Below, piece after piece: positions 3,904 through 8,500 of a stretch of DNA of 64,000 nucleotides. Both the position numbers and the translations under genes were made by a program. The notes beneath the pieces are model-generated. The model saw only the letters and a list, made by a program, of their open reading frames with translations, searched no databases and was not told where the DNA came from. The stretch lies in assembly GCA_976226885.1 (NCBI GenBank), contig OZ320321.1:23374001-23438000 (forward strand), given 5' to 3'. The first letter of the stretch is position 1; every line of letters begins with the position of its first letter. The stretch comes from Iphione sp. A-MEVVRFRX5 (taxonomy: Eukaryota).

Positions 3904-4366
3904 ACCATTAACTAGTACTGATTTCAAGAAATGTTTTGCTCACGAAAGCATTTTCAAAGCTGTGGACTCATATCAGAACCTACCATCTTTTCCTGTTTCG
4001 CAAAAACCAGCTATCTATGTTGTGAATACAGATCAGGTTACTGGGATAGGAAAACACTGGGTAGTCATTTTCCTCCCTGAAAATAACGAACCTGCTGAAT
4101 TTTTCGATCCATTAGGAAAACCACCCCAATCCTACAGTCAGAGAATTGAAGATTTCCTTATAGTAAATGCTTCAAAATTCCTGTTTTCAAACACGAAAAT
4201 TCAAGGAAAACAACCAGTGTGTGGTCATTTTTGTATGGAATATATTTTCTTCAAACTTAAAGGATGGTCTTTGAAAAAATATATTAACCATTATGATAGC
4301 GTAGATTTAGAAAAGAATGATTTTAGAGTAGTGAATAGTGAAATGTTAAGATGTCTCAAAAATTGA
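3884..4366 (+). CDS. Adenain-like cysteine protease (C5 family), virion maturation protease
   Basis: VVNTD...GKHWV, EFFDPLG and IQ...VCGHFC supply the His/Asp/Cys triad and oxyanion Gln. Confidence 0.93.
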   Translation: MFNSPPKPLTSTDFKKCFAHESIFKAVDSYQNLPSFPVSQKPAIYVVNTDQVTGIGKHWVVIFLPENNEPAEFFDPLGKPPQSYSQRIEDFLIVNASKFLFSNTKIQGKQPVCGHFCMEYIFFKLKGWSLKKYINHYDSVDLEKNDFRVVNSEMLRCLKN

Positions 4367-5078
4367 AAGCTTTTCTTTAAACTGCGAGATGATTATGAAC
4401 ATGTGCTCATTTGATTAATAAAGAATTCACACTTTTTCTGGATTTTTTTTACCTCCATTGCATCTGACGAAAAGTTTATCTGGAATGAGAAAAAAAAATA
4501 ATTAGTGAACTGATTCTGAAGACAAAGAAATGCAAGAAAAAAAATATGATTGTTTGTAAAACAAAAATAAACCAACATACCTTGCTTCGTCGTTGACTTG
4601 TTTTCTTTACAATAATTTTCCACAACAGAACACCGAAGCACAGAATGGTGAAACCAGATACACATCCTAATGCAATTTTAAGGGTTCTAACAGAAATACC
4701 ATTCGAAAGAATAGTATGTGTTGAATTTTGAACAAAAGTTGAAGAGGTTGATTCTGAAGCCGAACAATCCGAAAAATAGGAAATATGACTTGGAATTAGA
4801 GATAATGTGCTACAGTTAAATTTTTTCAAGGAAAAACGAATATCTAATTCCATTAGATTGGGGAAAGAAAGAAATGTTTTGAAATGAATTCTTTCAATTT
4901 CACATGATTTCCAGTCCAAAACCTTAACAGCATAATTCTTAATAAAATGAAATTTAAATGGATCAATTCTTCCACGACAACTCATAATGACTCCAGCACA
5001 AGGCCAACATTCTATAGGACAGCTCTGACTTGTAGAAAAAATAAAAACAATAAGCAATATATCTGGTTTTACCTGCAT
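4346..5078 (-). CDS. Type I membrane protein A with LRR N-cap and degenerate LRRs; predicted exons 5078-4581, 4479-4453, 4381-4346
   Basis: Signal peptide MQVKPDILLIVFIFSTSQS; CPIECWPC...SC cap; VKVLDWKSCEIERIHFKTFLSFPNLMELDIR LRR-like segment; Ser/Thr stalk; TM IALGCVSGFTILCFGVLLW; basic stop-transfer. GTATGT donor at 4580, poly-T..CCAG acceptor at 4480, GTAAAA donor at 4452 and CGCAG acceptor at 4382 all preserve frame. Confidence 0.7.
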
Positions 5079-5562
5079 GATGACAGTGCGTTCGCTTTCA
5101 TGTACTGACAAACAAAAAGCTGAACGACTCTTATATCTTCGTATAATTGAGTGAATCAGATAAGTTTCAAAGGACACACTGATAAAAGGTTGACCCTAAA
5201 TCACATTGACTATCTTTCATATGAAGCGATAACGATTTTTAATAAATGGGATAACGTTTTCCAGGGATAGGTGTTATCTCTTTTCTCGCTTATCGGAAAA
5301 AATCAACAAAATAACATAGATTAGAAGATTTGACGAGCTACAAACCACCATATTGTTTTTCCCCTATCTCTTCCGGTTCTTTAGTTTCGTATTTAGTTAC
5401 AAAAAAAAAAATCTCTTTTTTCTAATGATAAAAAAAGAGGAAATAAATGATATTTATTTAGAATGATAAAAGATCTTTTCTCTTTGAAGATTTTATTTTG
5501 TGCAGACTTGTTTTTACGAAGATGCGGTTCCGAGTGTTTGGAGTGATGAAAGTGAAAGAAGA

Positions 5563-8500
5563 ATGACGCTGTCAATCTTTTGGATCATTTTATTGTTCTT
5601 CTTTATTGGAAAAAGCGACGCAAAGGAATTATGCAGGCAATGTTCATGTCTTAATGGACACGTGTATTGTGTCAAAACCGAGATAGCTTTTTTCTTCACC
5701 ATAAACTATCCACACCCGAGTGTTAAGATTCTGGAGTTGGTCGATCCCCAAGTCACCGGTGTCCGCCATGAATTTATTGCGCACATTCATAAAATCTTCC
5801 CAAACTTGCTTCAACTGAAAGGACTCCCGTTCGAAAGTGAATCTTCCACAAAGAATGACGACGAGGCTTGGATAACTTCGACACTTGACACATCAAACAG
5901 AGAAAATGAAGGTCGGTCAAGTTCTGATGAGCGGAATCATGTTACAGTTTCCGAAACTGATAAACAGTTAACTAGTATGATGGTGTTGGTTCAAGATAAG
6001 AAAATCACGGAAAGTACAGATCTAGTGATTGTCGGAGTCATCTTAGGAGTGGGAATTCTTGGTATATTAGCAATTGGAGTGGTAGCTTGGATCAAACATA
6101 AGGTGCAACCACCGTGTTTAACTAGACGAAGTTTACATCCACAGCAGTCATTCTATGAACGAGCTTTCGAATGGCTTGGGAACCGTAGGTTAGTGTGTTC
6201 ATTTTTACTCCCTTGATTTTTTTTAGAGAAAAAAAAAAAAATCCCTCTAAAATTCTTTCAATCGTTAATTAAGAAAACAAATGGTAAAAAAAAAAATTCT
6301 ACTTTTGTTGCATCCTTGTCAAATCTGTGTCAGCCTAGGTTGACAAGGTGGGCTCTGAATTTTTTTTTTCTTGAATGAAGCTAACCCTAAAAGTAAAAAG
6401 TTGCTAAAACTAAATTCAAGGGGAGTGTTAGTAATTTTCTGTGGGTTTTTTTTTTAAAAAAGAATAAAATTGGAAATAGGCATATATATATTTTTGTTTT
6501 TTCCTATTCTATTTTTCAAAGAAATAGATCTGTTCCTTCAAGAGTTAACAACAGACAAACTGATGCAGTGCTTGGTGAAGTAAACAGTGAGGATGATGAG
6601 GAACCCCCTGAAACACCCAATTTATGGCAAGATACTACATTTTCTCAGAAGAGTAAACCAACAAATCGAAGCATTGGGCAAGCTCCAGATTATACACGTG
6701 GTTGTCTATCAGGAATTGATGTTCTGAAAAAACTGTTTCTATCTAAAACACAGCACGGGGAACCTTCCACATCAGGTATGGGACCAACTCCAGCACCACG
6801 TTCAGCATCTCTTCCACCTCCTCCTCTTCCAGGCCACTCAGCATTGACACCACGCCCGCGTTCAACATCACTTCCACCTCTTCCAGCCCATACATCAAAC
6901 TTGCCAGCACGAGCACATTTTCCACCACCTCCTCTTCCACCCCATTCATCATCATTGTCAGCACGAGCACGATCATCGCTTCCAGGACCCTCATCATCAT
7001 TGACACCACGTTCACGACCATCGCTTCTAGGACCCTCATCATTGTCTCCACGTCCAAGTTCAACACTTCCAGGATCCCCATCATCATTGACACCTCGTCC
7101 ACGTTCACCACTTCCAGGCACCTCATCATCATCATCGACAGCACGACCACGTTCAACGCTTCCAGTCCCCACATCTCCATATCCAGTACACCTTCATTCA
7201 CCAACACCACCAAGTTCACCTGACCCAGCACGTTCTTCACCGCCACCACGATCACCTTTCCCACAGCGTTCACCACCACCACGATCACCTTTCCCACAGC
7301 GTTCACCTGCTCCAGCACGTTCTTCACCACCACCACGATCACCTTTCCCACAGCGTTCACCTGGTCCAGCACGTTCTTCACCACCACCACGATCACCTTT
7401 CCCACAGCGTTCACCTGCTCCAGCACGTTCTTCACCACCACCACGATCACCTTTCCCACAGCGTTCACCTGGACCAGCACGTTCTTCACCAGAGCGAACG
7501 AGTCCACCATCTCCCCCTCCATCACCACGATCACCACCTCCACCAGAGCGAACGAGTCCACCACCACGTTCACCTTTCCCGCAGCGTTCACCTGGTCCAG
7601 CACGTTCTTCACCAGCACCAGCAGAGCAATCTATCCCACCACCACAGCGTTCACCTGGTCCAGCACGTTCTTCACCAGCACCAGCAGAGCGAACGAGTCC
7701 ACCACCTCCCCCTCCATCACCACGATCACCACCTCCATCACCAGAGCGAACGAGTCCACCACCTCCACCACCATCACCACGATCACCTACTCCTCCACAA
7801 CAATCTCAAACAGCATCACACTCTTCTTCTTCTCACCTATCATGTTTTTCCAGTAGAAGTCTGAAGGATGTTCTCCCAAAGAACATGCAGAACACGTCTC
7901 CCAGTCATTCTCCAACAGAATGTTCACTCACTCATATACCTACACATTCATCAGCATTGGAAAGATCATTTTCACCTGTAAACATCAGCAGCCTGAAGTC
8001 TGTTCAACCAGAAAGACAACAGAATGAGCCAGTGTTCTCCAGCAATAACCCTTTTGCTTCATTCATTAACAATGATGTTTGTCCCAACCCATCTGGCAAT
8101 GAACAGACAGCAGATGCAGTAGCAGCTAGTCTCTGCACTGTTTCCTCTCCAACCCATGACTCGTCAGCAGATGGAGAAGCAGTTTTAACAAGCAGTCCGT
8201 CGATAGATGTGAATTCTTCAACGCTGTCGCCTACTAATCCTTTTGTTCATGGCTCGTCAGCATATGCAGTAGCTGTTTTATCGGTCAGCCCAACGAGAGG
8301 TGTGGTTTCTTCAATGCTGTCACCTACTAATCCTTTTAGCCATGACTCATCAACATATGCATTAGTGGGTTTAACGACTACCCCGACGAGAGATGTGACT
8401 TCTTCAACGCTGTCGCCTACTAATCCTTTTGCTCATGTCTCATCAGCATATGCAGTAGCTGGTTTAACGAGCAGCCCAACGAGAGATGTGTCTTCTTCTT

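Follow-up and report, generated by a model that had tools for sequence, protein, structure and literature searches.

What might a Maverick gain from a head-to-head pair of genes for small membrane proteins with leucine-rich repeats (LRRs)? Mavericks are regarded as non-enveloped viruses that have become endogenous, their core genes lacking introns, and their dealings with the host cell are poorly understood. The window considered here (the whole stretch of 64,000 nucleotides) contains such a pair, genes A and B, both starting at the ATG codons named in a sequence-only reading (Table 1), which took the products for truncated LRR receptors serving as immune decoys, superinfection-exclusion factors or adhesion mimics. 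We tentatively favor an interpretation in which A and B are ancient duplicates encoding mini-LRR membrane proteins, likely the two chains of one receptor, with a predicted B tail that would bind host nucleosomes.

The Maverick element and the linkage of the pair

The Maverick setting first proposed for the pair is borne out by the structure of the element. Its terminal inverted repeats begin with AGT, the left one, which lies 7.5 kb before the window starts, being 100% identical to the right one over 74 bp, and a 6-bp target-site duplication flanks both sides. The integrase joins an rve core to a chromodomain, and a 1,570-aa ORF upstream of the window carries the family B DNA polymerase motifs KxxxNSxYG and DTDS and matches a further polymerase fragment (2e-18); Pfam and PDB searches gave this ORF no name. 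No Pfam family matched the capsid ORF, and the Pox_A32 match for the packaging ATPase (E 0.0019) fell under the cut-off.

Table 1. Coordinates of the element, of genes A and B, and of their predicted parts, numbered from the first letter of the window.
Feature	Position	Strand	Remarks
Maverick element			22,966 bp, complete (~23 kb), from terminal inverted repeats and target-site duplication
Integrase with chromodomain	742..1854	+	Pfam rve 1.6e-9, Chromo 1.2e-7
Major capsid protein	2545..3903	+	Assigned by position, size and unnamed homologues
Adenain-like protease	3884..4366	+	Tail to tail with gene A; Peptidase_C5 E 0.004, under cut-off
Gene A candidate exon 3	4346..4381	-	Overlaps protease end, opposite strand
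Gene A predicted exon 2	4453..4479	-	9 codons with donor at 4452; otherwise open to stop at 4393
Gene A predicted intron 1	4480..4580	-	Phase 0, AAG/GTATGT ... TTCCAG
Gene A exon 1	4581..5078	-	ATG 5078; basic stop-transfer after transmembrane segment
Gene A transmembrane segment	4620-4676	-	Single
Gene A short Ser/Thr stalk	4686-4763	-	
Gene A mini-LRR head	4764-5021	-	
Gene A signal peptide	5022-5078	-	
Intergenic region of the divergent genes	5079..5562	.	TATA-like element ~5130-5137, minus strand, before A
Gene B exon 1	5563..6188	+	ATG 5563; polar stalk and basic juxtamembrane segment
Gene B signal peptide	5563-5622	+	
Gene B degenerate mini-LRR head	5623-5838	+	N-cap only
Gene B transmembrane segment	6025-6090	+	Single
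Gene B predicted intron	6189..6527	+	Phase 2, TAG/GTTAGT ... AAATAG, 339 nt
Gene B predicted exon 2	6528..9870	+	About 1,110 residues, disordered, 49% Ser/Pro/Thr
W[DEQ]DT[ST]F motif	6625..6642	+	Near tail start; conserved
Five 34-residue repeats	9328..9753	+	Each with TPRRS(S/R)RL, a Dsup/HMGN-like nucleosome acidic-patch motif
Basic KRFRK	9826	+	After the 34-residue repeats
Right terminal inverted repeat	15398..15471	.	74 bp, then 6-bp target-site duplication

This genome carries the pair at some 300 or more loci. Its linkage goes beyond chance, since both genes lie head to head in 86 of 88 fetched loci, themselves selected through a match to A or B, and one or both heads occur in 16/16 loci of a third, distant Maverick clade chosen by capsid alone. 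In this clade 3, the A counterpart (A') is present in 13/16 loci and a B-like head (B') in 16/16, clear in 12; because A' is inverted and 2.8 kb away from B' in two of its 13 loci, a promoter geometry in common is not required. A promoter word common to both genes, TWCGAAR, is weakly enriched (38 occurrences against 26 +/- 5.6 expected, with 4/100 shuffles equally high). The identity of the pair tracks that of the capsid (Spearman 0.78 and 0.79; 171 pairs), and the linkage is fixed in three deep clades whose capsids share as little as about 41% identity. In every clade examined, the pair holds a fixed, core-like position by the capsid and protease genes, and gene A keeps its tail-to-tail layout with the protease in all 82 loci having one.

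No relative of the pair was found outside this genome in the databases searched. Alignments of A and B yielded none in a 5.8-billion protein set, weak evidence given that it covers longer proteins only, and a B profile run against 1.84 billion representatives returned three matches, all repeat-rich proteins lacking the cap. Viral contigs held no match to A or to the capsid, the ESM Atlas returned generic LRR clusters only (0.86-0.91), and a viral fold library gave no match at E 0.001; a 16-residue metagenome match in a bacterial contig was discarded as spurious. The pair is likewise not described in the Maverick/Polinton titles and passages covered by the literature search, though supplements of the adintovirus papers could list such genes as unnamed proteins. 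A predicted spliced, secretory-pathway pair kept down to 41% capsid identity would constitute a core-like host-interaction module of a kind not met in the papers searched.

Two predicted mini-LRR heads and their probable common descent

The signal peptide, the VK[VI]L[DE] and FPNL..L segments and the single transmembrane segment that the sequence-only reading ascribed to both proteins are seen in both, as VKVLD and FPNLMEL in A and as VKILE and FPNLLQL in B. Cysteine caps are also present (CPIECWPC..SC in A, CRQCSC..VYC in B), with four invariant cap cysteines in A and B heads, but the CxxxCxC LRRNT type attributed to them gives way to the variants CxxxCxxC and CxxCxC, which stay under the curated Pfam cut-off: an LRRNT (PF01462) scan matched 2/22 B heads, at best E 0.018, and no A head. 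The LRRCT domain is a C-terminal cap with four cysteines; at this end A, A' and B' carry two each and B none. Of the Ser/Thr stalks claimed for both proteins, that of A is 44-48% Ser/Thr and that of B only 28%. In the window, the stalk of A is 26 residues long, 77 shorter than most; in 11 sister copies it measures 102-103.

The LRR fold proposed for both heads is strongly predicted for A and weakly for B. Gene A contains the LxxLxLxx(N/C)xL repeat and the predicted solenoid fold of extracellular LRRs, although LRR_8 matches are weak, in 6/19 members. In the PDB its profile matches TLR, LGR and CD180 proteins, reaching 4.7e-11 for TLR3 over the whole chain, the strongest single stretch being the final LRR together with the C-cap. 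The head of A is confidently modeled (pLDDT 94.9) as a two-strand LRR, with LRR proteins in all Foldseek rows listed and a VIA fold search returning TLR3 (Z 7.8) and GPIb-beta (Z 6.8). For the head of B (pLDDT 81.5), GPIb-beta fills the top VIA rows (Z 5.6 and 5.2), Z values below 6 being in the range of common arrangements, and Foldseek gives E 0.15 or worse; the fold gains indirect help from B'. A receptor L-domain, with its FPNLxxIxG pattern, is another candidate for the B head, though none appears among the fold-search rows.

Paralogy was not evident from direct comparison of the two ectodomains (blastp E 0.26; hhalign 31.9% and 30.0%), which is insufficient alone, but it is supported through clade 3, because intermediates link A to B (A-A' 98.4%, A'-B' 96.9%, B'-B 93.7%) above host-LRR controls (89.4, 80.4, 88.6 and 24.4%). 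A quick tree of 102 heads, with deep forks lacking resolution, joins A' with B' rather than B' with B (SH-aLRT 93, long branches). A complex prediction for the A and B heads, with alignments not used as input, scored 0.02, which speaks neither for nor against pairing.

The A head is under purifying selection, with a dN/dS of 0.22 that resembles the 0.25 of the protease (Nei-Gojobori, pairs with dS 0.1-1.5; the pairs are non-independent, and two sets drew near-identical sister loci for different genes). The B head is weakly constrained (dN/dS ~0.7; 18 pairs), and some lineages carry two of them in tandem. At its C-terminus, A' ends in a PDZ-type [ST]xV in 13/13 cases, against 5/109 other ORFs, and A proteins of the window clade have no clear end of this type.

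Predicted splicing and predicted tail of B

Splicing is predicted in both genes. Intron 1 of A is backed by conservation, with a best donor in phase 0 in 30/32 loci. The bounds first drawn around the pair, 4346..6188, end at the candidate splice donor 6189 of B, but their start implies a three-exon A, and for this third exon no frame was consistent among the lineages compared; its final codons coincide, on the opposite strand, with the end of the protease gene, as its reverse complement. The same bounds treated B as a short protein, stopping at its first exon and missing the predicted giant tail. Because the best donor of B is in phase 2 in 21/21 loci, splicing onto a long tail is predicted, and a compatible acceptor scores best in 17/21; of the three highest-scoring acceptors in the window, the compatible one lies furthest 5' but ranks third. 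In clade 3, B' has a phase-2 donor in 9/12 loci and lacks one in 3/12. B is thus probably not short, but joined by splicing to the long frame that runs to 9870, where a further donor at 9847 suggests additional exons, and the internal ATG at 6778 could also yield a soluble form of the tail. No Pfam family was found in the three pieces of the tail scanned.

The tail is rich in short motifs. W[DEQ]DT[ST]F occurs in 11/21 B tails and in no shuffle, and RRSxR in 11/21, against 0.6 in shuffles; RRSxR is missing from the other 10, which include one entire sub-lineage (L123-L130). The window tail contains the RRS(A/S)RL core, with two copies of RRSSRL and three of RRSRRL, and Dsup carries PPRRSSRLT (PMC12487698). 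Clade 3 has instead a YxLRxR of the foamy Gag type, in 6/12 sense versus 0/12 antisense, in segments that are only putatively part of B'; in the GGYNLRPR of PFV Gag, Y and R are required for nucleosome binding. Because two different acidic-patch motifs sit at the same tail end, they argue for a function that has been kept, although the Arg-rich motifs could alternatively bind viral DNA or serve only as nuclear signals. CDK-type sites are enriched (13 versus 6.7 in the window, 73 versus 46 overall), and NPF motifs, five of them in the window tail, are present in 5/21 loci.

These features bear on the original proposal of immune decoys or adhesion mimics, which would make the tails incidental and the 6778 frame a separate nuclear protein. 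The fast evolution and doubling of the B head are as a ligand-facing domain would show, and the long frame does have an ATG of its own, but one or two repeats leave little surface for binding ligands in the TLR manner, gene A evolves under constraint, the splice sites of B are conserved and so are the tail motifs. With the cytoplasmic sides conserved and motif-rich and the position of the pair fixed, this proposal seems distinctly improbable, and a pure decoy is unlikely because of the predicted long tail, its motifs and the PDZ-type end of A'. A role in superinfection exclusion or in adhesion is still a serious competitor.

A proposed link from membrane to chromatin

The pair would be read best, if tentatively, as linking membrane to chromatin rather than as a simple decoy; splicing, localisation, pairing and cleavage are here all predictions from DNA. 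A would supply a conserved binding head and a short sorting tail, and B would anchor the disordered, nucleosome-binding tail. The mucin-like stalk, sequons, juxtamembrane cysteines, and tyrosine and PDZ-type motifs suggest that both proteins reach the cell surface or endosomes, where contacts between the heads may pair them in the manner of GPIb-beta and GPIX. Once the heads are engaged, shedding would follow and release the B tail, which could then enter the nucleus, dock on the H2A-H2B acidic patch and alter host chromatin or the activity of the element itself. No conserved cleavage site was found; an LRGG-type protease site after the transmembrane segment of B, seen by inspection in only a few clade-1 loci, was dropped.

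Release would be dispensable if B stayed uncleaved in the inner nuclear membrane, the sole place where an intact membrane protein reaches interphase nucleosomes. The long disordered linker and basic signal would carry B through the pore, and the tail would hold chromatin at the envelope, so that sites of replication or integration are anchored or the envelope is remodeled for exit, with A as lumenal partner or separate surface actor. KRFRK after the repeats and the enriched CDK-type sites fit this arrangement, and active import of yeast membrane proteins driven by an NLS and a disordered linker has been reported (PMC4695851). It is nonetheless rather unlikely, the mucin-like stalk, the NPF motifs and the tyrosine/PDZ-type tail of A' pointing to plasma membrane and endosomes.

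It is similarly doubtful that the proteins serve egress or spread, marking the membranes of infected cells or virions, with A binding outside, the B tail recruiting motors, endocytic adaptors and actin for cell-to-cell spread or superinfection exclusion, and the Arg motifs gripping the viral core. The adjacency to capsid and protease genes and the proline runs, NPF and Trp-acidic-like motifs of the tail are compatible with such a role, and there are precedents in the joint repulsion of superinfecting virions by vaccinia A33 and A36 (PMC3709573) and in a membrane fusogen encoded by some nematode Mavericks (10.1101/2022.07.12.499685). Against it, no fusogen-like ORF exists among the ORFs of the element, and the Arg motifs closely match two known nucleosome-binding types. 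The kinesin-1 W-acidic motif, moreover, has Trp flanked by D/E and often L/M at W-2 (PMC5450233), whereas the B motif has W[DEQ]D with L at W-1 and no L/M at W-2.

For the membrane-to-chromatin reading, a possible history, advanced with slightly more reserve, is that a captured single-LRR gene was duplicated into a two-chain receptor whose acidic-patch anchors evolved twice, with different motifs, and gain access to chromatin either at the nuclear envelope or once freed. If true, viruses would offer few parallels for an acidic-patch binder anchored in a membrane. The pair also lends itself to tests, since its predicted splice junction is precisely placed, both heads are small and foldable, and the short motifs can be assayed for nucleosome binding.

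Several known systems resemble parts of this arrangement. The tail motifs closely match those of Dsup/HMGN (RRSSRL/RRSARL) and the chromatin-binding sequence of PFV Gag (GGYNLRPR), but these proteins, like LANA and IE1, are soluble, whereas B is predicted to carry its motif at the far end of a tail anchored in a membrane. Vaccinia A33/A36 are also two cooperating viral membrane proteins, one with a long motif-rich tail, and adenovirus E3 RID-alpha/beta likewise act together; both sets differ from the pair in head fold and share no homology with it, and their tails are not known to carry chromatin motifs. Among Maverick and adintovirus accessory genes are PLA2X, GasderminX and a cupiennin-like protein (PMC8502044), as well as the fusogen MFUS-1 and intron-bearing wasp/krma cargo of nematodes (10.1101/2022.07.12.499685). 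These genes are similarly non-core, and some are membrane-active or have introns, but none of them is an LRR gene or a paralogous pair; vertebrate Maverick elements are reported as intronless (PMC8097293). The pair is fixed across clades, unlike swapped Maverick cargo. Toll-like and variable lymphocyte receptors share Cys caps and extracellular LRRs of the typical 24 residues, but the pair has about two strands instead of a long array, Cys replaces the ladder Asn, and no TIR domain was matched in exon 1 of A or of B, the 6778 frame or the tail pieces. GPIb-beta and GPIX are paralogues within one complex. These single-LRR type I membrane proteins (PDB 3rfe, 8wfs) share with the pair an N-cap, one or two LRR strands, a C-cap and a transmembrane segment. 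The fold search ranks them first for B (Z 5.6, rmsd 3.6, 72 aligned), while for A they share the leading places with others (Z 6.8, rmsd 2.9, 82 aligned). They are, however, host vertebrate genes without mucin stalk or giant tail, whereas the pair is element-borne, has no sequence match to them, and has two C-cap cysteines in A and none in B.

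Distribution and inheritance of the gene pair

The divergently transcribed genes A and B, both predicted to encode type I membrane proteins with a small LRR ectodomain (head), are a real pair and belong among the accessory membrane genes of Mavericks. They are carried by a complete Maverick, 22,966 bp long, inside which the window starts; the animal genome around it measures 1.18 Gb. Its 74-bp terminal repeats are identical to each other and flanked by a 6-bp duplication, which indicates that this copy is young.

Features of the window element, in gene order, of its surroundings and of one other sub-lineage (L-numbers are other stretches fetched from the same genome)
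Feature	Location	Strand	Remarks
Polymerase	L119:4637-9346		Upstream stretch; N-terminal C2H2 fingers, C-terminal NADAR domain (Pfam 5.2e-11)
ATPase			Upstream stretch
Integrase			With chromodomain
Three small ORFs			
Capsid			
Protease			
A	window, ATG at 5078	minus	
B	window, ATG at 5563	plus	
Long Ser/Pro/Thr frame	window 6528..9870		Predicted to be spliced onto B; another donor at 9847
Two unnamed ORFs	window 10978-11538 and 12942-13610 (-)		First matches weakly (E 3e-4) a clade-3 ORF in the corresponding place
Single-BIR inhibitor-of-apoptosis gene	window 14160-14702	minus	Near right end; similar ORFs in clade-3 L142, L149
DDE_1 transposase	window 17094-18337	plus	Pogo/Tigger-type, outside the Maverick
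Part of a different Maverick	L120:13-4167		Some 10-20 kb upstream of the window; comprises a polymerase end, an ATPase and an integrase with 41% identity
Tandem double heads in B	L062:3996-4853; L070:3928-4767; L085; L087		One sub-lineage

Against their own genome, A and a divergent A each gave at least 150 matches with two places in common, hence at least about 298 places, and B behaved likewise. Among 88 loci fetched around A or B matches, the two genes lie head to head in 86, and the protease is tail to tail with A in all 82 loci that bear one. Three loci (L063-L065) have an additional short ORF between capsid and protease, resembling the capsid N-terminus. To avoid choosing loci by A or B, the genome was also searched with an outside capsid and 16 of 92 matches were taken (L142-L157); their capsids form a third clade (clade 3), with 40-43% identity to the window capsid. 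The counterpart of A (A') occurs in 13 of these 16 loci and that of B (B'), by position, in all 16 (12 clear and four weak matches), and the two are head to head in 11/13. In the exceptions, L151 and L155, an inverted block of A' and two neighbours breaks this layout; across clade 3 the whole cassette is flipped relative to the window, and B' with its tail adjoins the protease. The weak match of the first unnamed ORF suggests that further unnamed genes are common to the clades. Identity correlates with capsid identity for A, B and the protease (Spearman 0.78, 0.79 and 0.73), and the pair has therefore been inherited with the element. Protein, metagenome and viral-contig searches found no relatives outside the Iphione sp. 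genome.

Anatomy, fold and relationship of A and B

The sequence-only reading was borne out on the two ATGs and, for both proteins, on the signal peptide, the Cys cap, the VK[VI]L[DE] and FPNL segments and the single TM. In representative loci, hydropathy alone marks a hydrophobic signal region in 42/43 A and 41/41 B proteins, and a basic cluster follows the TM in 42/43 and 38/41. The Ser/Thr stalk attributed to both holds for A (46% Ser/Thr), but B stalks reach just 26%. In the window copy the A stalk is 26 residues long; 11 sister copies with 95-100% DNA identity have stalks of 102-103 residues. The tandem heads of B in one sub-lineage imply that the head is a modular unit.

The profile of A hits TLR3 at 4.7e-11 over the entire chain and at 0.07 over the best single stretch, which covers the final LRR and the beginning of the C-cap; CD180, TLR4 and LGRs are hit as well. 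The A model (pLDDT 94.9) has four short strands; Foldseek returned no rows at E 0.001, all rows among the matches listed being LRR proteins, and VIA placed TLR3 first (Z 7.8, rmsd 2.5, 81 aligned), with LRR proteins down the list. The B model (pLDDT 81.5) scores middlingly, its best rows being LGI1 and GPIb-beta (Foldseek E 0.15-0.18; VIA Z 5.6 and 5.2). Neither cap reaches the Pfam LRRNT cut-off.

Compared directly, the heads of A and B align without significance, and on this comparison, which the sequence-only reading had itself chosen, its claim of paralogy fails; paralogy is supported through the clade-3 bridge A-A'-B'-B. B' combines a B-like N-terminal pattern with an A-like C-terminal cap, and hhalign gave 98.4% for A-A' (74 columns), 96.9% for A'-B' (84), 93.7% for B-B' (65), 89.4% for A-B' (79) and 20.9% for B-A'. 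A control profile from nine host LRRNT proteins scored 89.4% with A', 80.4% with B', 88.6% with A and 24.4% with B, so that the A'-B' and B-B' links exceed it and A-B' does not. In a quick tree with long branches and unsettled deep forks, A' groups with B', and on this basis two separate duplications may have occurred instead of one; against this, B and B' also have intron phase and tail in common.

Tails, selection and possible function

The intron behind the TM of A is conserved (phase 0 in 30/32 loci), and the tail is short, its end inconsistently placed in the window clade. Clade-3 A' lacks an intron after the TM, and its tail carries an invariant tyrosine-rich stretch and a C-terminal [ST]xV (13/13, against 5/109 other ORFs), which we take to be YxxPhi and class I PDZ motifs. 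Behind the TM of B, the best donor is phase 2 in 21/21 loci and the best acceptor, by a crude score, is compatible with the long frame in 17/21, these loci being related and non-independent; the predicted joined frame of window B has about 1,320 residues. A phase-2 donor is found in 9/12 clade-3 loci, where it marks a putative splice.

RRSxR occurs in 11/21 B tails, invariably towards the distal end (0.6 in shuffles, at most 4), and W[DEQ]DT[ST]F in 11/21 (shuffles 0); the window tail has five TPRRS(S/R)RL repeats. Dsup and HMGN bind the acidic patch through PPRRSSRLT and RRSARLSA (PMC12487698), and the PFV Gag motif is GGYNLRPR, in which Y and R are required (PMC12125541; also PMC6042332, PMC9040877). 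YxLRxR is present in 6/12 clade-3 loci on the B strand and in 0/12 on the opposite strand. A sub-lineage of eight loci (L123-L130) has neither RRSxR nor YxLRxR; its tails are alike in their KGKGKGK runs and in an SP(V/I)FxS(Y/F)RxIH motif at the C-terminus.

Median dN/dS is 0.22 for the A head (33 pairs) and 0.72 for the B head (18 pairs), compared with 0.25 for the protease (54 pairs) and 0.05 for the capsid (24 pairs). A joins a constrained head to a sorting tail, and B a faster head to a long motif-rich tail; this build is more in keeping with a two-chain receptor than with the truncated-receptor decoy first proposed, which is the least probable of the readings. On the tentatively preferred reading, A and B would pair as a receptor displayed at the surface or in endosomes, and the B tail, cleaved free, could then reach chromatin and bind nucleosomes. 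That B instead stays uncleaved as a tether in the inner nuclear membrane (compare PMC4695851) seems unlikely, and a role in egress or exclusion resembling that of A33/A36 (compare PMC3709573 and PMC5450233) is similarly improbable.

Comparison with known Maverick cargo

Among the titles and text passages covered, we found no account of such an LRR membrane-gene pair in Mavericks. Some known accessory genes are membrane-active: the adintovirus gene list includes PLA2-, gasdermin- and cupiennin-like genes, beside oncoid and anti-apoptotic genes, and section 3.2 of that paper names no LRR membrane protein (PMC8502044). Nematode Mavericks are described as carrying a fusogen and cargo genes with introns (10.1101/2022.07.12.499685). 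The vertebrate elements have variable accessory regions and lack introns (PMC8097293), while the window element has predicted introns in both A and B.
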